A program made the position numbers and the translations under genes. The notes beneath the pieces are model-generated. The model was given only the letters and a program-made list of their open reading frames with translations, did not search any database and had not been told where the DNA came from. A stretch of DNA of 22,636 nucleotides from a virus (lineage: Duplodnaviria; Heunggongvirae; Uroviricota; Caudoviricetes), in IMG/VR virus record IMGVR_UViG_2740892230_000001, positions 1 to 22,636 of that record. One strand, written 5' to 3'. Shown in pieces: positions 1-22,602 of the stretch (position 1 is its first letter; every line of letters begins with the position of its first letter).

Positions 1-34
1 GGTTCTTCTGACGGGCGGCGGCACAGGGATGTGC
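1..34. repeat. Left copy of a perfect 34-bp inverted repeat (partner at 1164-1197); the window starts inside it, so it may extend leftward
   Basis: 1-34 ggttcttctgacgggcggcggcacagggatgtgc is the exact reverse complement of 1164-1197. Read on the plus strand it ends a frame with GGG TTC TTC TGA, the same final codons and stop as the antirepressor gene. Confidence 0.8.
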
Positions 35-48
35 AAAACGAAACTATC

Positions 49-60
49 GTGACATGTCAC
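49..60. repeat. 12-bp perfect palindrome GTGACATGTCAC; the 14-mer tcgtgacatgtcac recurs at 21917-21930
   Basis: Direct reading; self-complementary; second identical copy about 21.9 kb away. Confidence 0.7.
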
Positions 61-78
61 AGGCCGCTTTCGCGGCCT
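61..78 (-). terminator. GC-rich stem-loop after the small secreted peptide gene (weak U-tract)
   Basis: AGGCCGC / GCGGCCT 7-bp stem with a 4-nt loop directly after the stop at 86-88; downstream T-run is poor, so terminator function is uncertain. Confidence 0.3.
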
Positions 79-85
79 TGTTCTT

Positions 86-247
86 TTAACGAATGCCACC
101 GCCGCCCGGGCGGGAATCCGCAGAACGCCCACCGCAGCGGGAGCCGTCAGCGGCAGTATCGCTGTCGTGCTGACAACGACCGGCAAAGGCCTGAGTTGAA
201 GCTACCAGAGACAACAAAACGAACAGTGCAGCAAATGCTTTTTTCAT
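86..247 (-). CDS. Small secreted peptide, 53 aa: predicted signal peptide MKKAFAALFVLLSLVASTQAFA, then a 31-aa Gly/Cys-rich mature part
   Basis: Internal Met of track ORF 86..352. Classic n/h/c signal peptide with AFA-G cleavage motif. The longer ORF start would read through the terminator hairpin at 320-339, so the MKK start is preferred. Confidence 0.35.
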   Translation of the reverse strand: MKKAFAALFVLLSLVASTQAFAGRCQHDSDTAADGSRCGGRSADSRPGGGGIR

Positions 248-1039: not shown

Positions 1040-1113
1040 GACATTACCTCATATCTCATAAGTTCATTACACGGATTAATAAAAATGAAACCAATCCGTT
1101 TACCCTTGAGGTA

Positions 1114-1142
1114 ATAGTACGCTATTCACCCACAGTCTGCAA
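1114..1142 (-). promoter_or_regulatory. Putative sigma70 promoter of the toxin-antitoxin-like operon (TTGCAG-17-TACTAT)
   Basis: Minus-strand -35 at 1142-1137 and -10 at 1119-1114. A 9-bp inverted repeat TGAGGTAAT (1107-1115) / ATTACCTCA (1043-1051) overlaps the -10 and the SD. Confidence 0.3.
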
Positions 1143-3588: not shown

Positions 3589-6500
3589 TCACCGCATCAC
3601 CGGATCCACCTGGTTTATTAGTGGCGCAATCCAGAACAGGTTATTGCCGGGTATCAGGGTTCGGACATTATGCACAATACGATCACCGGCATCACCATTC
3701 AACACTCCTGCGGTCACATCAATGATGCTATCCGCAAGACCAAATGACGGTCCGAATAGAGATCCTACGAATCCACGACTGGCATACCTAGACTGTGTGC
3801 CAGTGCCAAATAAAGCCCCCAGCCCAACAGCACCACCAGTAGCCTTTTCAGCCATGTTGTTATATTCCATCAATGGCCCAAGAATACCGGATCTATCTAT
3901 ACCCTCAAGCACCAGCTTCTCTGGTGACCAGTCAACATTTTTCCCTTTCGATGCTTCTTTTAGCGCATAGACCAGTGAGCCAAGAGCAATCTGAAATGCA
4001 GTGCCATAATAAAATTGCGCAGTTCCTTCCTGTAACCCACCAAGTAGCACACGGTTGTATGAAGCCGTTGTGAATGATTTAAACTGAAATATCGTTCGCC
4101 CCATTGGAGTACTCGCCCATAAAGGTGTGTCACCAATACCGGGGGTGATGATAGTGTTATTAACGTCTTTCAGAACCGCTGACTGGAATACTCCGGCAAC
4201 GTACTGATCGTCCCATTTATCAAAGTTACCAATGTGCCATCCATCAATTACCTCACCATGTTTCTCGAACTCACTGCGAATACGCGCAGCCATATTGTCG
4301 TTGATACCGAGTTTTGCCATGCGACGTGCAGAAAACGCACCAGACAAAATACCGTCTGACGTGAGCATTCCGTTCATGGATTTGTTTATGTCATTAAATC
4401 GATCCATGAGTGTCAGCTTGCCGAAGGCATCAGTAATTCGCTCCATTCCTGCTTCGACTGCTGTTGTCCTGGAAGAACTGTCAACAAGATCACCAATTGC
4501 ACGAGAACGTGAATGTAGTACAGCTTCCAATCCAATCCCCATCTTCAACATCTCTTCTTTGCTGGCCTTAAATGCCGGTGATTGGGATATCTGAGAAGCA
4601 TAGCCTTTCATGGTGTTACGGAAACCATTAACCATAACCCCTCTGGCCAGATCTGGAATAGCTGATACTGTCATTCCACCGAGTTTGGTCGTGAAGTTCA
4701 CATCCCGCAGAAAAGCGCCAGCACGAACAAAAAACGAAGACGGATCATCAGGCATACCATATGTACCAACAAGACGATCGCGTAATGCTGTTATGTCTCT
4801 GAGATCATTTGCTCTTGATTTTGAAAGTCTGGACTGTTCTTTCCGTAATTCCTTTTCGTACTTTCGCATTAATGAATCGAGTTTACCCTGAGGAACAACT
4901 TCACCATTGCTCTCATAACGTGCTTTCAGATTTGCCACACTTTCGTCATATTTCGCCTTTATTTTTTCAGGCACTTCCCGTAACAGACTGTCATATTCGT
5001 CCTCAATTAATTGCAGACGCTCAGTCATAGTTCGTTTGCCAAATGTTCTCGTCAACTCAATTTCTGCTGCCGCTTCACGGATATGACGTTGCAGCACGTA
5101 ATTCACATCACTTTCAAGATAATCCCTGATAAGACTATCAGGCACATTTAATGTTCTTTCTTTCGTACTACCTGCGGCTTTTACAGAAAATACGCTGACA
5201 AAATCCTGTGGAACCTTAGCACCAGTAATTTTATTAATTACGATATCCGCTGCAATTTCAGCATCCTCAGGATCCAGTGTTTTATTTCCTCTCGACCACC
5301 AGTCAACCAAAATACGTCGAAATTTATCGCGTTCACTGATTATTTTTCCAACTTTATATATACGTGGAAAATAGCTTGCCTGGCCTAATGCTTTCAGTTC
5401 TTCATCTGGCGGTAATAAACCAAGCTTTTGCATTTCAACCTTCACCCGATTTAATACAGTTCGCATCGCCTGCGCCGTTTCCTGAACAACAGGATTAGCA
5501 TGCACATCACCGCTTCGCATAGCATTCCCAACCTGCTGACGAAATGAATCAAAACTCATGTCACCACCATCAGCTTTATACTTTGCGTATGCCTGTTTAT
5601 TTCCGACAACAACAGCAGCTTCTTCACGCCGCCATCCACGTGTACGGGTTTCTACAGCTACCGGTGTTTCAATCCCCCTTTCATTTCCTTTAAGGGTGAA
5701 ATTATTTTCGGCTAACTCCAGCGTTGTTTTTCGCACTGTCTTGGACGGAGACTCCATTAACCTTGTCAAAGGAGTAAGATAGCTCCCTGCTTTCCATGCA
5801 GCCTTTCCAACCCACCCACCGGAAACAGGGGTTAAATCATCCAGAGTCGCTGTATCAATTTTCATAGCACCAACACTACCACCATCAGAAAGCGAAGCGG
5901 CAGCCCTGTCAGTCGCTGATGTAATGCTCATATTATCAAGAGCATCAGCAACCTCACGCGTGGCTGCAGCCCGGACGGATGGCGAAAGCGCAACACCAGC
6001 ACTGGCAAACACGCCGCTCATCATCGCACCCGCTGCAACGTGAGCGGCACTTTCACCCCATGAGCGTGTTATTTGCTGATTATTCAGCACAACCTCGCTT
6101 AATGCTGTACCGGCAGCACCAATCGCAATCTGTGAGCCAATACGCGCCAGTGCCCCTCCTTGAGCACCGGGGATAAACATTGACGCAACAGTAACCGGAT
6201 CCATTCCCGCAGCAATACTGGCAAGAGTTCCAACTACGCCAGCATCAGACAATAAACGTCTGTCTTCATTTTCATCATCTATCTGCTGCTTAATCCACGC
6301 CGTTTCCTCTGGCGATCGGGAATCTGCAAATTTCGCCCCCCAGTATTCATAACCGTGCAACTCATTTTTATCAGCATATGGGTTATAACCTTCGACCGGT
6401 TCAAACTGTCTGGCTGGTCGGAAAAAACCAGCCAGAATATTGTTCTGTCGCATTGCAGCCCCCCATACGGAAGGCTCCGGTGGCAATGGCTCAGGATTAG

Positions 6501-6603: not shown

Positions 6604-9320
6604 TATTTAGATCCCCACGAAAAGTAATCTTTAAATTTGTCCATACGTTCGTTATGCAGGCGCTGATACTGCTCATCCAGAGCGCGATGCTTGTCTTTGA
6701 AGTTTCGTATAGCCTGTCCACGCATAATTTCTTCCTGCTCGTACTGCTCCCATTCCTGCTGCATTTTCTTATAAGGTTCCCAATCTTCTAGTGATGGTTC
6801 CCAACGCATAGGACGCCCATGTTTGTTATAAAACGGCTGGACCCGATCGATGCCATTTTCATCCTTAGTTCTTACCATAATGGCGTAATCACCATTACGA
6901 GGTGTTAACACGTCAGGGGTTATGAATAATTCTCCATTAATACGACTCTCAGGGGTTTTTGTCTCAACTACAGGAGCATTACCTGACGTGATCCCAAGCA
7001 ACGTCGGACTGGTTGTTATAATCTCTTTGCGCTCACCGTACATCAGCCGTTCTTTTTCAGCTTTCCACTGCGCCGCCTGCCAGCCTGACGGCCCATATTG
7101 ATAAAGCGCCTCCGGTGCATATTTCATAAACTGCGCTTCTCCGTTAACCTCGCTGATACTCCAGGTGCGGGCTATCTGCTGGTTGGTCATTTGCTTCGCT
7201 ACGTCAGCGTTACCACCAGCAACGCGGTAGTTAATGTCATACAGCGTCTGATAGTCATTACGGAATCTAGCTGCTTCCGGCGTCTGGTCATCCGCAGACG
7301 GATCCCAACGGAACCACTGCGCCATATTGCTGACAGCAGAATTCATCGCCTTGCTGCGATCATTTTTGTACTCTTTTGAACTCTGCGTTGATGCCAATTG
7401 AGCTTTAAGAGCATCGGTCTGGTTGTACGTAAGGTTCTGCGCCTGCTCGATAGCCGCATCAGCAGACATGCCAGAATCAGTTAGTTGCTTAACAGTCAGA
7501 TAAAAACCCTGCATATCCTTCGGCATATTTCCAATAGATGCATTGTCTGTTTCATATAACCGACTAAACAGTTCCGCCGCATTTTTAACCACTTCCTGAT
7601 TGCTGGATCGGGATACTGCTGAAAGCTGCGTGATGACCTGCGAAGGCATTATGCCAGTCTGAGCCACAAGCCGAACAACCCCATCATGAGTGGAGGCATC
7701 ATTAATACGAAAGTTCTGCGCCATTTCTGTGTAATCAGCAGCTTTCTGCATTGACTTGTTGCTTGGGTCTAATTTTTCACCTATTGTCAGCGCCTCATTG
7801 AATCTGCGTGAATCCCGTTGCGCCTGAATTGCTTCATTTGATCTCTGAAGCAATGCAGACAATTTTCCGTAAGCATCGAGTTTTAACGCATAGTGAGGAT
7901 CGTTAACCTCAGGCTTCACTTTCTGCATTTCTTCTTGCTGCTGAGAAGGAGGCAAATACTGAATTGCCTGGAATATTCTCGCGTTATCAATCGCTATATC
8001 CAGTTGATTGATTATTTTATCTGCGTTTTTTCCATACCCCCTGATGATGGTCTCCTGAGCCGGTATATAATCTGGAACCTCACCGTTATATAGCTGTGCC
8101 ATGGTGTTATTAATAGCTGGCTCAAGCTGTTCTAATATTAACTTCCTTTGCTTTTCTATCTGACTATTAGCAAGGTTATCTATTTGATAAATAGTCAGCG
8201 GATCCATTCCAGTTTTATTTTTTCTATATCGGGAAAGCCACCCTTGTGTTTCTGATGGAAGATTTCGGATAAATTCTTCTTCTGATATTTCACCTTTACG
8301 TGGATCACCGACTTTGGCGATCAGTTTATCCACGTTACCCATCCCCCAGTTATATGCTGCTCCGGTCAATATTTCGGAACCGTACTTACCATACAGTTGA
8401 TTTACATAGTCACTGGCGAGCATTTCATGCTGTTGTTCGTCAGTAGGGTTGTATTCAACGCCACGCTTGGCCGCCAGTTCTTTTCCTGTGCCCGGCATTA
8501 ACTGGTATTTCCCCTGCGCTCTCTCTCCAGAAGATGTTATCGGTCCCTCAAGAAGACTACCATCAGGATTAAAATGTCGATCACCTGATTCAACAAGGCG
8601 TATGGCACGCATGTCCATGCCTCCAGAATCATTTTTCTGAAACAGACCATTTAGCCATCCTTCTGGATTGGCAGCGGCATAATTCTTCGCCCGCATTTCT
8701 GTGGCACTGCGATCATCACTTTCTATTTCTTCCAGAATGCGTTCTTGTGACCATCCCCTGGCAGCTCCATATCTGGCAATGGCTACCATTCTGGAATTTC
8801 TGGCTAAAGTGGCAGTTTGCGGGTCATTCCAGGCATCCGCTTCATTTTGTATCCATAATTTTCTCGTTGCCTGATATTGCTCATCTTCATAGGCATTTGT
8901 CTGCCCTATCTCATGTCTGAGAACTCCAGTACTGAACTGAATTTTCTGTGTTCTGGCTTGTTGCAAAAACATATTTCTTGCTGCTTCATCAGTCAATGAA
9001 GCAGCTATTTCTTCCACATCCTGATCAAATCCAGATATGTACTCTTGCCCCTTACCAATCGCATTTTTGCCTTGTTGTGCATAAAAACCGGTTTGAGGGT
9101 TATAAAGACGTTCATTGCTGCGCTGATTAAGCTGAAGGATGGCATCCTGAGACAATGCAACATTCGCTTTCTGCCTGGCTTCACCATATGCCACCGCATA
9201 CTGATCTGCGACATTCGCCAGCACCTGACCTGCTTGAGGAACATCGAAGGTCTGAAAACCACCGGTTTGTACACCACGACTCTCAACCTGACGTCCTGAT
9301 ACTGTTGGTACGACTGGCAT
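6603..9320 (-). CDS. Internal virion protein with lytic transglycosylase domain (gp15-position), about 905 aa
   Basis: SLT-type motifs VESGDRHF ... YQLMPGT ... AAYNWG encoded at about 8300-8635. Start placed at the ATG at 9320 (GGAGG SD, TAATG overlap with the upstream stop) rather than the track start 9395. Confidence 0.7.
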   Translation of the reverse strand: MPVVPTVSGRQVESRGVQTGGFQTFDVPQAGQVLANVADQYAVAYGEARQKANVALSQDAILQLNQRSNERLYNPQTGFYAQQGKNAIGKGQEYISGFDQDVEEIAASLTDEAARNMFLQQARTQKIQFSTGVLRHEIGQTNAYEDEQYQATRKLWIQNEADAWNDPQTATLARNSRMVAIARYGAARGWSQERILEEIESDDRSATEMRAKNYAAANPEGWLNGLFQKNDSGGMDMRAIRLVESGDRHFNPDGSLLEGPITSSGERAQGKYQLMPGTGKELAAKRGVEYNPTDEQQHEMLASDYVNQLYGKYGSEILTGAAYNWGMGNVDKLIAKVGDPRKGEISEEEFIRNLPSETQGWLSRYRKNKTGMDPLTIYQIDNLANSQIEKQRKLILEQLEPAINNTMAQLYNGEVPDYIPAQETIIRGYGKNADKIINQLDIAIDNARIFQAIQYLPPSQQQEEMQKVKPEVNDPHYALKLDAYGKLSALLQRSNEAIQAQRDSRRFNEALTIGEKLDPSNKSMQKAADYTEMAQNFRINDASTHDGVVRLVAQTGIMPSQVITQLSAVSRSSNQEVVKNAAELFSRLYETDNASIGNMPKDMQGFYLTVKQLTDSGMSADAAIEQAQNLTYNQTDALKAQLASTQSSKEYKNDRSKAMNSAVSNMAQWFRWDPSADDQTPEAARFRNDYQTLYDINYRVAGGNADVAKQMTNQQIARTWSISEVNGEAQFMKYAPEALYQYGPSGWQAAQWKAEKERLMYGERKEIITTSPTLLGITSGNAPVVETKTPESRINGELFITPDVLTPRNGDYAIMVRTKDENGIDRVQPFYNKHGRPMRWEPSLEDWEPYKKMQQEWEQYEQEEIMRGQAIRNFKDKHRALDEQYQRLHNERMDKFKDYFSWGSK

Positions 9321-16316: not shown

Positions 16317-16609
16317 TCCTGTTCACTGGCCTCTTTGGCCATCTTCAAATACTGTTCAGGGCAATGAGCCATAACGCGCTGAAACAGTTCCAGCGCCAGA
16401 TTGCGTTGCCCCTCATTAAATGCCATTGCCATAGCATCCATCGGAGAGATAGCGGAAAACACCCGGCCTTTCTCCAGCACAGACCAGACAACGCGACGCC
16501 CCTGTTCACTGCTCATGACAAAGCGAATGTCATCAATTTCACGCTGTGCCATGTCACGTTGCTTACGGGCGTTTTCTTCTTTCAGTTGATCGTCTTCGTA
16601 ATCTGTCAT
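16313..16609 (-). CDS. Hypothetical 98-aa protein between the portal and scaffold genes
   Basis: Track ORF with 4-nt overlaps at both ends (translational coupling). Confidence 0.5.
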   Translation of the reverse strand: MTDYEDDQLKEENARKQRDMAQREIDDIRFVMSSEQGRRVVWSVLEKGRVFSAISPMDAMAMAFNEGQRNLALELFQRVMAHCPEQYLKMAKEASEQE

Positions 16610-18506: not shown

Positions 18507-18933
18507 ATCAATGACTCCGTACGCAATTAAATTATTACCAATTTAACCACATATGATTTATTTATCGTAGATAGTTGACATTTAACGCACAAATTATTAC
18601 CTTTCAGGTAAGCAAAGGGTTCATTCCGGTTATTAACCTGACTGGCTTGTCGTTAAATTGAACAGGTGGAGTGAGCTTTTATTTTGAGCAGTACGGCGTA
18701 TGGCACATGCGCCGATAGCGGTCTGGATACGTTTAAGGGGCACCCTCCCTTGCTCGGGCAAACGAACCAGGTAGCCGGAATGTGCAAGTCGAGCGGTTTT
18801 ATTCCGCGCACGGGGATTCACCATCCCGGCGATTCGGTGTGACGCCTCGGAAGAGACGAGGGTACAACGATGAGAGCATTTATGGAGCCGCGACAAAGTG
18901 TGGCGCCTTAACAGGCTAAGTGCTCTCAGCGTT

Positions 18934-19739: not shown

Positions 19740-21215
19740 TTAAGCATAAGGGTCATAATCCGTTATGGCCCTTCCCTGCTGGCTTTGCTGTCCTGGTATA
19801 TTTATGCGTTTCGAGACCGGGAAAGCAAACGTCAGCAGTAGCGCATCGCCTTTACCCGGAGAACGCCCAAGCCGCTCCTTGATATCTTCCTTCGGTTCGA
19901 TAACGATTTTACCGTCCACACGAACTTTGTACTCTGCCGCCGACAGGTCGTCTGCAGTTTCCTGGTCATCCAGCATGCCGCCCAGCCTCAGCCATGTCTT
20001 ACATGAGTTGAACATCTCCCCGCGCTTGTTAAGCATCTGCGGGTCAGTGGACGCACCGCCGAACGGAACAAGTTGCCATGTACGTCCCCAGCCATCACCG
20101 ATTGACTTCAAACCGGTTCCGTAACCGAAGTCGATGAACACCGCGTCAGCCTGATACTGGTCTTCAAAGTCAGCGATACGCTTCGCCATAATCAGATCGT
20201 CGGTAGTCTTGTTGCCAGTCCACAGCACCTTACTGTGTAGCCCCTGCCGCAGGTATATCACCGCGTCATCAACGCCTGAATATGCTGGGTCAACACCGAT
20301 TATCACCGGAGCATGTGCAACCTGCGCAGCGGTGACCACCCGTTTCATTGCCTCGTCAGTAAGGCCGGTAGGGATAAACTGCAATTCAGATGCATCAGGG
20401 AATATGCCGCGCACACGGATTTTAACGAAGTCGCTGTCTTCCCCGTAGTCATCAACCCATTTCTGCAACTGCTGTTTGTTAGTGCCTTCCACCGTCCGGC
20501 TGTCAATCTGCGCAGTTTTCCAGCGGTGTTTATATTTGCGGAAACATTCGCGGAAACGCCCGGTGTTACGCGTCGGGTTTCCGAACGCCACCCAGATAAT
20601 CTCAGTGTCTTCGTCCGTAAGCGCACCCTCTGCTACCTCCCACACCAGATCGGCAATGTTCGACGCTTCATCGAATACCACGATGATGCGTTTGCGCTCG
20701 TTGTGTAGTCCGGCGAATGCCTCAGTGTTGTGCTCAGACCAGGGGATTGCGTCAGCTCGCCACCGCTTGTCGTGCCCAGGGTCATTGCTGTACATCGCGG
20801 TAGCTGTACAGGTAAACCAGTCTTTCGTGATAGCAAGGTTTGACCACTTGATAATTTCCGGCCAGGTCTTCGTTCGTAGCTGGTTGTCGGTGTTGGCGGT
20901 CACCACGACCTTACAATCCTCGCAAGTGGACATGCCCCAGTTGATCAGCATTGAGATGAATGCGGATTTACCAATGCCGTGACCCGAAGCACGTGCCAGC
21001 ATAAGCGGCTGATAGCGCGTCTCTGGATTCTGCAGGTGATCACGTATCTCTCGGAACGCATCAGCCTGCCACTTACGTGGACCGGTGGCATGTGCCAGTT
21101 CAGTCCCCTCTTCCCCCCAAGGGAACGCATAGAGGGCATAGCCAAGCGGATCGTGAGTGAACCCTGCAATATCCTCGATTAACTGCTCTTCAGGAGATAA
21201 CGCTGTATCTGTCAC
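19740..21215 (-). CDS. Terminase large subunit, 491 aa
   Basis: Walker A-like LARASGHGIGKS, Walker B IIVVFDEAS, nuclease-domain motif VIIGVDPAYSG. GTG start overlaps the terS stop (GTGA). Confidence 0.85.
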   Translation of the reverse strand: MTDTALSPEEQLIEDIAGFTHDPLGYALYAFPWGEEGTELAHATGPRKWQADAFREIRDHLQNPETRYQPLMLARASGHGIGKSAFISMLINWGMSTCEDCKVVVTANTDNQLRTKTWPEIIKWSNLAITKDWFTCTATAMYSNDPGHDKRWRADAIPWSEHNTEAFAGLHNERKRIIVVFDEASNIADLVWEVAEGALTDEDTEIIWVAFGNPTRNTGRFRECFRKYKHRWKTAQIDSRTVEGTNKQQLQKWVDDYGEDSDFVKIRVRGIFPDASELQFIPTGLTDEAMKRVVTAAQVAHAPVIIGVDPAYSGVDDAVIYLRQGLHSKVLWTGNKTTDDLIMAKRIADFEDQYQADAVFIDFGYGTGLKSIGDGWGRTWQLVPFGGASTDPQMLNKRGEMFNSCKTWLRLGGMLDDQETADDLSAAEYKVRVDGKIVIEPKEDIKERLGRSPGKGDALLLTFAFPVSKRINIPGQQSQQGRAITDYDPYA

Positions 21216-21808
21216 TGATTGCCATCCTGACGTTCTTTGAGTCGCTTCCTGGCTGCTGCTATGCGATCAGCAATTGTCACATTCACATTAACATCCAAGC
21301 GTTCTTTGAATGCGTTGACGTCGACGTGCTTACCAATCAGTTCGAGGTTCTTCACCTTGTCAGGCCATTTAATTTTTTTGAGGATTGTCTCTATCGAATC
21401 CTCGTTCATGTTCATGATGGTCGATGACAGATCAAAGCCGCTAAGCGTAGTGCGCCAGATTTTCGGCCACTCGCGGATTGGCTTAAGGCTCCCATCGTCG
21501 TTGAGGATGTCGATCACGTCCATCTGGTCGATCTCCACCAGGCGCATGAGAACGTAATCAGCACTGACGCGCATTCGTTTGTTGCGCTCCTCCATCAACT
21601 CGGCAATCCGTTTTTGAATACGTTCATCGCGCATCATTACACTGGCTTTAACTGCCGCTGTATTTGGGGAGAATCCTGCGTTAATCGCTGCCTGAGTCTG
21701 GTTTTCAGGCGTTTTGATGTATGACTGGCAATAAGCCTCCTGCATTGCTGTTAGTGGCTTAAATTGCGTTGATTTGCGTTTATAGGTTTTAGGTTCAGCA
21801 GGCATCAT
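21212..21808 (-). CDS. Terminase small subunit, about 198 aa
   Basis: GFSPNTAAVKASVMMRDERIQKRI resembles the small-terminase helix-turn-helix region. Start set at the ATG at 21808 (MMPAEPK); the track's extra 26 N-terminal codons cover the tandem repeat. Confidence 0.65.
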   Translation of the reverse strand: MMPAEPKTYKRKSTQFKPLTAMQEAYCQSYIKTPENQTQAAINAGFSPNTAAVKASVMMRDERIQKRIAELMEERNKRMRVSADYVLMRLVEIDQMDVIDILNDDGSLKPIREWPKIWRTTLSGFDLSSTIMNMNEDSIETILKKIKWPDKVKNLELIGKHVDVNAFKERLDVNVNVTIADRIAAARKRLKERQDGNQ

Positions 21809-21815
21809 AACCACC

Positions 21816-21849
21816 GTGGTAATAGTTACCATTGTGGTAATAGTACCAT
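21816..21849. repeat. Tandem direct repeat (17 + 16 nt), each unit internally palindromic, immediately upstream of the terS start
   Basis: gtggtaatagttaccat (21816-21832) and gtggtaatagtaccat (21834-21849); arms GGTAA/TTACC. CCACCGTGG, the immI operator core, abuts at 21811-21819. Confidence 0.6.
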
Positions 21850-21850
21850 G

Positions 21851-21877
21851 CAAAATAAAGCCGCCATAGTTGGCGGC
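21851..21877 (-). terminator. Rho-independent terminator between the upstream small genes and the terminase genes
   Basis: Minus strand reads GCCGCCA-ACTA-TGGCGGC followed by TTTATTTTG. Confidence 0.55.
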
Positions 21878-21926
21878 AGTATTCAAAACACATCAAATTC
21901 ATCATGCATAATCTACTCGTGACATG

Positions 21927-22265
21927 TCACACTATTAATTTCGTTTCATGCCAGCCTTTAGTCACCCAGCATTGCGAGTCACCATTGCACGGGCATGAAT
22001 TAACTGGAACTCTCTCGCCGCACTTACCGCAACGTTTTCTGCTGATCGATTTTATACGCCCGCGCACGCGTGCATCATCCTGGCGGATCAGTGACGCTAT
22101 ATACTCACCAAATTCGTAAGGCGCACGCCCGGGGCGACGCGTGGCACAGTTACGCTCTAGCATTTCAATTTCCTGAGCATCAAGCACAATCTCCATCTTA
22201 CGCACACCAGATGCAGCTTGTCTGGCTCTCTGAGCGGCTTTGCGCTCTGCTGCTGATTTAGCCAT
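21927..22265 (-). CDS. Hypothetical 112-aa basic protein with a C-terminal four-Cys cluster (C-x2-C-x9-C-x-C); candidate regulator
   Basis: Track ORF; 8-nt overlap with the upstream gene; stop codon lies inside the palindrome GTGACATGTCAC (21919-21930). Confidence 0.5.
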
Positions 22266-22602
22266 TCTGATTTTCCTGCATCATGAGAAATACAATCATG
22301 GCGGCGCGGAGAGGTCTGGTATCAAATATTGGTCTTACGTCTTTTGCATCCACACACCATTCAGTTAACTGGTCTAAGATAGAAATCCTGTATTTCTCAA
22401 TAATCGGCCATGAAGCGATCGGATCATTGCAGTAGTCAGGTAAAGGGGTTAATGGCTCAAAAGTTGTATCAGCATTTCCGTAATACCATTTGTTGGTGTT
22501 ATTCCCTGATGTTTCCGGTTTACATGCCCAAAGGCCTTTAAAAATTATGTCTCCTACCATTCTGTTAATTTCAAAATCACTTAACTGTGAATAGTCCATC
22601 AC
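22258..22602 (-). CDS. Hypothetical phage protein, 114 aa
   Basis: Track ORF with GGAGG SD 6-7 nt upstream of the ATG at 22602. Confidence 0.5.

Follow-up and report, generated by a model that had tools for sequence, protein, structure and literature searches.

On sequence comparison, a small gene and a short palindrome at its end travel together through divergent phages, and this co-travel is the main new result of our analysis of a 22,636-nt stretch of DNA from a tailed phage (IMG/VR record IMGVR_UViG_2740892230_000001, positions 1 to 22,636; the whole stretch is called the window below). The gene encodes a basic protein of 112 amino acids, and its stop codon lies inside a 12-bp dyad of the form GTGAC-N2-GTCAC, GTGACATGTCAC; an intrinsic terminator and the terminase genes terS and terL follow. 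Alignment identifies the window as late-region DNA of Escherichia phage TL-2011b, which is a Uetakevirus-like prophage (phiV10/epsilon15 type) from an outbreak strain of enterohaemorrhagic Escherichia coli (EHEC), O103:H25: it is in its entirety the reverse complement of TL-2011b 10794-33430, and therefore all relevant genes are on the minus strand, and the 937 bases around the 112-aa gene are 100% identical to that phage. An earlier note on this DNA, made from the sequence alone, had likened the arrangement to the late-gene control exercised by the Q antiterminators. The best reading, as we see it, is different. The protein is probably a small site-specific DNA-binding factor at operon boundaries, with a predicted ribbon-helix-helix (RHH) fold and zinc knuckle, and terS and terL are most likely transcribed from a promoter of their own. 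We hold this composite explanation tentatively, at a probability of roughly 0.4.

The dyad at the stop codon has the look of a functional element and not of an accident. As the earlier note had observed, this perfect 12-bp palindrome holds the TGA stop (21927-21929), and the same GTGAC-N2-GTCAC sits on the family stop codon in phages whose flanking sequences are unrelated and whose proteins are 33-80% identical. The form seen here is shared by TL-2011b, epsilon15, 66FD and Klebsiella phi13.3, and the centre is AG in BUCT554 (GTGACAGGTCAC), CT in AH07 (GTGACCTGTCAC), TG in N15 (GTGACTGGTCAC) and GC in a Yersinia P2-like phage (GTGACGCGTCAC). Across 193 loci (655 kb), 148 of the 160 occurrences fall between -15 and +60 of a family stop codon and 12 elsewhere, the chance expectation being about 7e-5 per 75-nt interval; the divergent loci were gathered with single divergent proteins as queries, one of which (P0186) gave none. 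When the stop is TAA or TAG, as in ZF40, Chlobot and several metagenomic lineages, the dyad is intact but lies 3-31 nt further downstream (3-7 nt in ZF40 and Chlobot, where the stop is TAA), and it is therefore not a coding by-product. Since the half-sites are invariant and only the central dinucleotide varies, the element looks like a protein-DNA site rather than an RNA helix. The simplest reading is that the dyad is the RHH protein's own binding site.

The protein itself supports such a role. The 112-aa open reading frame (ORF) is real and its product basic (pI 9.78; 23 lysines and arginines, 13 aspartates and glutamates), as had been claimed. The cysteine motif read earlier as C-x2-C-x9-C-x-C survives in part: the two cysteine pairs are present, but the spacing between them is x8 and a further cysteine follows, so that the full pattern is C79-x2-C82-x8-C91-x-C93-x5-C99. 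C93 is a lineage-specific extra, replaced by F in most family members. C79, C82 and C99 are kept in all 65 sequences of the wide alignment (A2); the fourth cysteine, which aligns with C91, is invariant in the subfamily alignment (A3) and scattered by indels in A2. With four cysteines family-wide and a confident AlphaFold2 model, the zinc binding suggested by the earlier note is plausible. That model, computed on the 65-sequence alignment with a predicted local distance difference test score (pLDDT) of 88.8, consists of a basic helix (5-19), an extended segment, helices 30-42 and 52-74, a cysteine-rich knuckle and a short C-terminal helix, and contains the beta-strand, helix A and helix B of a ribbon-helix-helix; a run on a shallow alignment (21 sequences, at least 76% identity) gave an unusable model with a pLDDT of 50 and was set aside. 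The predicted family architecture is accordingly a basic N-terminal helix, an RHH DNA-binding fold, a long helix and a C-terminal Cys4 zinc knuckle. Sub-threshold sequence matches (RHH_5, RHH_1, RepB-RCR_reg and YbfE) agree with the RHH fold; the one weak match in NCBIfam is again the RHH protein YbfE, and a Pfam search with the 112-aa protein returned no match. The three best matches in a profile search of the PDB are DksA/TraR zinc fingers, YbiI (E 0.02) and TraR (E 0.04-0.05), which are not significant and are a lead only. The sole match in a BFVD fold search is a fragment of the same family, and PADLOC gave the protein no match, so it is not a known defence component.

The family is a narrow one of gamma-proteobacterial phages, with 661 homologues among 5.8 billion proteins and 177 representatives at 50% identity among 1.84 billion. 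Named members come from the enterobacterial hosts Escherichia, Salmonella, Klebsiella, Enterobacter, Citrobacter, Yersinia, Pectobacterium, Pantoea and Edwardsiella, and from Vibrio, Enterovibrio, Aeromonas and Paraglaciecola. The protein matches PHROG 536 ("transcriptional regulator") over residues 1-111 with an E-value of 4.5e-54, and public annotations, made from profile matches, call members "hypothetical protein" or "transcriptional regulator"; the epsilon15 record mentions the resemblance of its own gp49 to N15 gp46. Our literature search for any family member, the dyad sequence, N15 gp46 or epsilon15/phiV10 late transcription found nothing relevant, and the paper on phage ZX5 does not treat the family gene.

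How might such a protein act? Extra copies of the dyad lie at other operon ends of epsilon15, Tyrion and TL-2011b (Table 1), and at all of the dyads listed for these phages the order is the same: stop codon, dyad, intrinsic terminator. Some of the extra copies separate convergent genes, a place in which a promoter would not be expected, and away from the 112-aa gene the terminator starts 0-4 nt past the dyad, leaving no space for one. In an unbiased scan of viral contigs for GTGACATGTCACAA, a terminator started within 30 nt in 38 of 119 unique contexts, and a family gene was present within the few kb fetched in 37 of 120 loci. Because the extra dyads sit between stop codon and terminator, convergent genes included, we favour an action at operon ends. 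A dimer of the RHH protein would bind the GTGAC-N2-GTCAC dyad and act there on transcription complexes, slowing or blocking the polymerase just before the terminator (as a roadblock or pause) and so reinforcing termination; the bound dimer would also insulate neighbouring, often convergent, transcription units. The terS-terL genes would be served by an extended -10 promoter under the control of CI-like repressor operators, with no Q-style device of promoter, short transcript and read-through.

Several points weigh against this explanation. A GTGAC half-site that stays invariant across proteins of about 30% identity is odd for a private pair of regulator and operator, and hints at an additional conserved partner, perhaps of the host. 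Among 86 unique gene-proximal dyad contexts, 44 have no terminator within 150 nt, and in the terminator-less contexts a gene start or a LexA-regulated promoter follows the dyad. The extra dyads may descend from duplicated 3′ ends of the gene, and would then not be independent evidence: window positions 31-48 read KTKLS followed by a stop, resembling a fossil of the family gene's 3′ end, and KLPLL followed by a stop at epsilon15 gp18 is a similarly fossil-like end next to an extra dyad. For TL-2011b, the notion that its two dyads are independent sites is weakened by the fossil coding sequence beside the second copy. A roadblock immediately before an efficient intrinsic terminator also looks redundant. 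The extended -10 motif assigned to terS is statistically ordinary in the window (2 matches against 1.2 expected), and its weight comes from its conservation in relatives. Finally, we infer every functional step, the predicted binding included.

The earlier note had placed a strong terminator shortly past the palindrome and before terS, and there is one: the hairpin GCCGCC-AACT-ATGGCGGC at 21877-21860 on the minus strand begins 41 nt past the palindrome and runs into TTTATTTT, the 83-nt stretch that contains it folds at -23.7 kcal/mol (z = -2.7), and the records of epsilon15 and phiV10 mark this hairpin as a rho-independent terminator. It is kept in phiV10-like phages, epsilon15, Tyrion, 66FD and Klebsiella phi13.3; other relatives have non-homologous terminators in the same place, and in locus L184 and BUCT554 the hairpin is missing. 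By all these signs the hairpin and T-tract are a genuine intrinsic terminator closing the early operon, at the early/late boundary. An Rfam match to the Hfq-binding small RNA rseX at 21853-21938 on the minus strand, reaching from the palindrome to the terminator (29 bits against a gathering threshold of 50, E 0.05), is driven mainly by the terminator hairpin and was rejected. We also agree that no clean sigma-70 promoter lies between palindrome and hairpin: the only match there is GTGACA-18-CATGAT (9/12), and such hexamer pairs occur at chance level (6 found, 5.1 expected). Palindrome and hairpin are 41 nt apart in TL-2011b but 23 nt, of different sequence, in epsilon15, and the intervening stretch is not conserved in Tyrion either.

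The earlier note's claim that a separate promoter would not fit before terS does not hold up. The 51 nt between the hairpin and the terS ATG contain a conserved extended -10, TGGTACTAT (TGnTAyTAT), and two operator-like dyads of the form TTACC-N5-GGTAA. Variants of the -10 in relatives, TGTTACTAT, TGATACTAT, TGGTATTAT, TGTTAGTAT and TGATAGTAT, retain TGnTAnnnT, and the module of TGnTAnTAT and operators is kept upstream of terS in relatives from E. coli, Salmonella, Klebsiella and Enterobacter. It persists without the terminator (L184, BUCT554) and where a LexA-box moron of up to about 330 nt separates it from the palindrome, the distance from dyad to module ranging among relatives from about 60 to more than 400 bp. 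The operator-like motif occurs four times in the window (1100-1114, 18597-18611, 21808-21822 and 21826-21840), at the starts of several transcription units, and none of 100 shuffles reaches four. TL-2011b has 10 exact copies; one exact and two degenerate copies lie in its immunity region between the gene for a helix-turn-helix repressor, gp10, and the divergent gene, and other copies lie at the leftward early operon (2), inside the rightward early operon (2), upstream of the portal operon (1) and near the ant region (3). The epsilon15 GenBank record labels the same sites "repressor, lysogeny", including the one at 12-27, ahead of terS. It is this distribution, together with the epsilon15 annotation, that makes the dyads putative operators of the CI-like prophage repressor, and their position at several unit starts points to direct control of early, late and ant-region promoters by a single repressor. 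For the direct repeat GGTAnCTATTACCAC ahead of terS, a pac site and a site for the RHH protein were considered; since the same dyad recurs in the immunity region and at other operon starts, repressor operators are favoured. The most likely arrangement is therefore, in our reading of the sequence, that terS-terL is transcribed from its own repressor-controlled promoter and that the hairpin does no more than end the early operon.

What stands of the proposed Q-type control is the position of the gene, the terminator and the lack of any other annotated late regulator; the homology, the promoter and the dependence on read-through do not stand. Comparison with the Q-family antiterminators, the structures of lambda Q and Q21 included, found neither a sequence nor a fold match, and each Q-defining feature that could be examined appears to be absent, although control of the terminator by the 112-aa protein in some non-Q manner is possible. 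Other phages with the gene argue in the same direction. In N15 the family member, gene 46, lies several kb downstream of the phage's own Q, gene 40 (PF06323, E 1e-110); in ZF40 it is gp22, upstream of a gene annotated as Q-like; in the P2-like Yersinia phage vB_YenM_56.17 it directly follows the replication gene A, and the phage also has a genuine Ogr (PF04606, E 4e-21). In AH07 and Chlobot, xis and int genes follow. Common to all these phages is that the family gene is last or nearly last in an early operon, and in N15, ZF40, AH07, Chlobot and the P2-like phages it has no linkage to terS. Given its coexistence with Q in N15 and with Ogr in the Yersinia phage, the family member is not the late regulator there.

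The main rival to a roadblock is the opposite effect, relief of termination, by which the protein would bind the dyad at its own gene end (preferring to act in cis, as lambda Q does), modify passing RNA polymerase and carry it into terS-terL; read-through of the same kind at the other pairs of dyad and terminator would link the late units in long transcripts. The order of regulator gene, site, terminator and late genes suits this, as do the dyads just 5′ of terminators at several operon ends. In its favour, too, all Uetakevirus-type relatives retrieved carry the gene, and the annotations of TL-2011b, epsilon15 and Tyrion list no Q, N or other late regulator. The best PDB profile matches, YbiI and TraR, are proteins that bind RNA polymerase, but those matches do not reach significance, the position of the fourth cysteine differs and there is no TraR fold match; moreover, the helix that aligns with the N-terminal helix of TraR is part of the RHH core and presumably could not enter the secondary channel of the polymerase. 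Without likeness to the Q families, with family members living alongside Q and Ogr elsewhere, and with a conserved promoter/operator module ahead of terS, we regard this version as unlikely. One dyad in epsilon15 and one in Tyrion, besides, precede the terminator of a minus-strand moron, where read-through would yield only RNA antisense to terL. A broader proposal, that an RHH-zinc-knuckle protein at dyads 5′ of terminators switches them one way or the other, relieving or enforcing termination, and represents an unrecognised class of transcription-boundary factor, is in our view a long shot of the same order. The cassette of gene and dyad is common to Uetakevirus, N15-like, P2-like and Vibrio phages, and under this proposal a connection with the host protein MatP may be the reason why its half-site is identical to the one in matS.

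Another rival is an ordinary transcription factor; RHH proteins are mostly repressors or activators. The dyad would then be an operator that activates or represses downstream genes (the terS promoter, morons, xis/int, N15 gene 47) or limits the distal expression of its own operon. The next ATG follows it after 11-17 nt in N15, Chlobot and many E. coli prophages; in the Klebsiella and Enterobacter relatives the -35 of a LexA-box promoter comes 6-7 nt after it, and in Vibrio phage K303 the terS ATG comes 19 nt after a dyad. Some phages have two tandem dyads upstream of the next gene. The downstream partner, however, is not conserved, the distance from dyad to terS module varies as given above, and the dyads between convergent genes have no promoter to regulate; we consider this alternative improbable. 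Quite improbable is a protein that organises or bridges DNA after the logic of MatP and matS, in which dimers at the two to three dyads of each genome would anchor phage DNA or form bridges in it, or would compete with the host's MatP at matS-like sites, and any effect on transcription would be secondary. E. coli matS, GTGAC[AG]N[CT]GTCAC (PMC3603311), has exactly these half-sites, and in the phage protein a long helix follows the RHH. The named hosts outside the Enterobacterales (Vibrio, Enterovibrio, Aeromonas, Paraglaciecola), like the Enterobacterales themselves, fall inside the MatP-bearing clade, and a constraint set by a host system would account for the invariance of the half-site. Yet the spacer is N2 (12 bp) instead of N3 (13 bp), comparison of the family profile with E. 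coli MatP by hhalign gives a probability of 0.2% and BLASTP finds no match, the N-terminal domain of MatP is absent, true 13-bp matS is reported to be absent from prophages (PMC3603311), and the idea offers no reason for a site exactly between stop codon and terminator. Last, that the palindrome is no protein site at all but a coding by-product or a hairpin of the mRNA 3′ end, the protein doing something unrelated such as accessory work in packaging, is very improbable: the dyad does overlap the last codon and TGA in most members, a weak RNA stem is possible and the gene adjoins terS in Uetakeviruses, but the dyad is displaced intact when the stop changes, an invariant stem around a variable centre is the opposite of RNA covariation, 5 bp with a 2-nt loop do not make a stable RNA hairpin, and in N15, ZF40, AH07, Chlobot and the P2-like phages the gene is not linked to terS.

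Table 1. Features of the window around the 112-aa gene, and copies of the GTGAC-N2-GTCAC dyad in the window and in related phages.
Sequence	Feature	Coordinates	Strand	Basis or remark
Window	Dyad GTGACATGTCAC, probable (predicted) binding site	21919..21930	.	comparative genomics
Window	112-aa ORF (TL-2011b gp20 / phiV10 gp55 / epsilon15 gp49 / N15 gp46 family)	21927..22265	-	PHROG 536
Window	Predicted zinc knuckle C79-x2-C82-x8-C91-x7-C99	21969..22031	-	codons 79-99; alignments A1, A2, A3, per-column counts
Window	Intrinsic terminator of the early-right operon	21852..21877	-	7-bp stem (6 GC), 4-nt loop, then TTTATTTT
Window	Promoter-like match GTGACA-18-CATGAT, probably not functional	21901..21930	-	chance-level count
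Window	Extended -10 TGGTACTAT, candidate late promoter of terS-terL	21840..21848	-	conservation; promoter role inferred
Window	Tandem operator-like dyads TTACC-N5-GGTAA	21808..21840	.	overlap predicted start site and terS ribosome-binding site/ATG
Window	Exact operator-like dyad TTACCACAATGGTAA	21840-21826		
Window	One-mismatch operator-like dyad TTACCACGGTGGTTA	21822-21808		overlaps terS ribosome-binding site and ATG
Window	terS, small terminase subunit	21212..21808	-	Pfam Terminase_2, E 1e-29; TL-2011b annotation
Window	NinX-like (DUF2591) gene	22258..22602	-	Pfam PF10765, E 2e-15
Window	Second dyad (49-60), terminator AGGCCGC-TTTC-GCGGCCT (61-78) and TGTTCTTTT; the second TL-2011b copy (32282 below)	49..87	+	
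TL-2011b	Dyad	11500		gp20 stop
TL-2011b	Dyad	32282		38 nt after ant stop; hairpin and T-tract directly after
epsilon15	Dyad	39612		gp49 stop; terminator 39646-72, 22 nt later
epsilon15	Dyad	19517		on stop of gp18 (last structural-operon gene); annotated terminator 19531-56, 2 nt later
epsilon15	Dyad	2142		after minus-strand gene, just before that gene's terminator
Tyrion	Dyads	41755, 20377, 2702		three positions equivalent to those in epsilon15

Gene order is collinear among TL-2011b, phiV10, epsilon15 and Tyrion (genus Uetakevirus). The 112-aa gene and the NinX-like gene share 8 nt, from the ATG of the one to the stop of the other, and the two are translationally coupled; by its position the 112-aa gene closes the early-right operon of replication and then nin-like genes. 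Downstream, terS has a ribosome-binding site (RBS), GGTGG, at 21815-21811 and starts at ATG 21808 or 21805. A TTG-started ORF of 224 codons (21212-21886, minus strand), the form of terS annotated in phiV10 and 66FD, would extend it upstream across the operators and the hairpin; the 197/198-aa form is the likely product because the RBS and ATG at 21815-21805 are conserved.

Some further observations concern the dyad in individual phages. In Vibrio phage K303 (locus L012) the family stop codon has no dyad, and two copies of GTGACACGTCAC lie downstream (4005-4016 and 6720-6731), one of them the copy ahead of terS. N15 (L003) has a second GTGACTGGTCAC at 1735-1746 (about 33237 of the record), in the 5′ part of repA; its other copy, at the gene 46 stop, is 6 kb away. 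Several IMG/VR contigs (L253, L273, L219, L236/L250) hold half-sites or dyads in arrays or tandem pairs, such as GTGACGTGTTAC and GTGACATGTCAC with 4 nt between them, reminiscent of iterons or multi-operator regions, and a dyad with one mismatch, GTGCCATGTCAC, lies within a head-region gene at window positions 16546-16557. A small moron that encodes a UmuD-like or other ORF stands, in the relatives from Klebsiella and Enterobacter, between the dyad and the module of terminator and terS promoter (2782-3250 of L007, BUCT554; 2782-3243 of L009, Klebsiella ST512-KPC3phi13.3; many IMG/VR loci, L133-L200), and its promoter carries a near-perfect LexA box, TACTGTTTAAATATACAGTA. At the far end of the window, perfect 34-bp inverted repeats (1-34 and 1164-1197), each including the last 11 nt of the ant ORF, flank a 1.13-kb segment whose orientation is inverted with respect to the TL-2011b GenBank record, in which it carries a YafO-type toxin gene and small ORFs.

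We found no description of the timing of late genes in epsilon15/phiV10-type phages, in which regulators of the Q, N, Ogr and RinA types are not annotated; phiV10 is used for the detection of O157, and TL-2011b comes from an EHEC outbreak strain. Three things can now be put to the test. One is a multi-operator design that places the prophage repressor directly on the promoter of terS and of other late units; another is a DNA-binding protein, conserved but uncharacterised, for which a 12-bp site is predicted. The third is the recurrent layout of stop codon, dyad and terminator, which suggests that a protein may control intrinsic terminators from a DNA site. If that is true, it would add a new mechanism to the few termination and antitermination devices of phages and would explain a gene carried by hundreds of enterobacterial and Vibrio prophages, and if termination is relieved it would amount to a late switch independent of Q and N. 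If the protein is an ordinary repressor, the outcome is a useful annotation and little more. The prediction is sharp and cheap to test.

How does the system compare with those already known? With the lambdoid Q proteins (lambda, 82, 21; PF03589, PF06530, PF06323) it shares a gene at the end of the early operon, a DNA site, a terminator and late genes beyond, and lambda Q, too, has a Cys4 zinc site. The phage protein, however, is only half as large, and its predicted fold is RHH, unlike that of Q; the DNA from dyad to terminator holds no conserved promoter or pause element, the late genes have their own candidate promoter/operator module, and in N15 the family coexists with a true Q. The resemblance is one of gene order only. 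The late activators found near terS or at operon ends (RinA, ArpU and LtrC in Gram-positive systems; Ogr, Delta and B in P2-like phages) are likewise small regulator-like genes at an early/late junction, and Ogr is also a Cys4 zinc protein, but the 112-aa protein does not match Ogr_Delta (PF04606; C-x2-C-x22-C-x4-C, about 72 aa), the family coexists with Ogr in vB_YenM_56.17 and the dyad keeps no fixed distance from a late promoter. DksA/TraR proteins (TraR, YbiI) are common in the same phage and plasmid regions and have a helix followed by C-x2-C-G-x2-[IL]-P and a later C; here the spacing is C-x2-C-x8-C-x7-C rather than C-x2-C-x17-C-x2-C, with a fourth ligand, C91, upstream of C99, the helix is embedded in the predicted RHH domain, the fold searches gave no hit to them, and PF01258 is not among the families listed for members.

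MatP, too, has an RHH followed by a long helix, identical half-sites GTGAC/GTCAC, few sites per replicon and a similar host range. The phage site is 12 bp against 13 bp, the phage protein lacks the four-helix N-terminal domain and has a zinc knuckle where MatP has a C-terminal coiled coil, and neither MatP domain, PF06303 or MatP_C PF17414, was matched in Pfam; this comparison was with one E. coli sequence, whose returned homologues were almost all at least 97% identical. With the RHH regulators (Arc, Mnt, CopG, the ParD/TacA antitoxins, AmrZ) the protein shares its small size, the predicted beta-alpha-alpha fold with a basic arm before it and a 12-bp dyad-symmetric candidate site. It differs from them in a C-terminal Cys4 knuckle found in none of the RHH structures retrieved, and in a site that lies not at a promoter but at the 3′ end of a gene, in transcribed DNA ahead of terminators, a placement at operon ends that is unusual. 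The protein is best described, on the strength of the model, as a new architectural variant of the RHH DNA-binding proteins, an RHH fold joined to a Cys4 knuckle.

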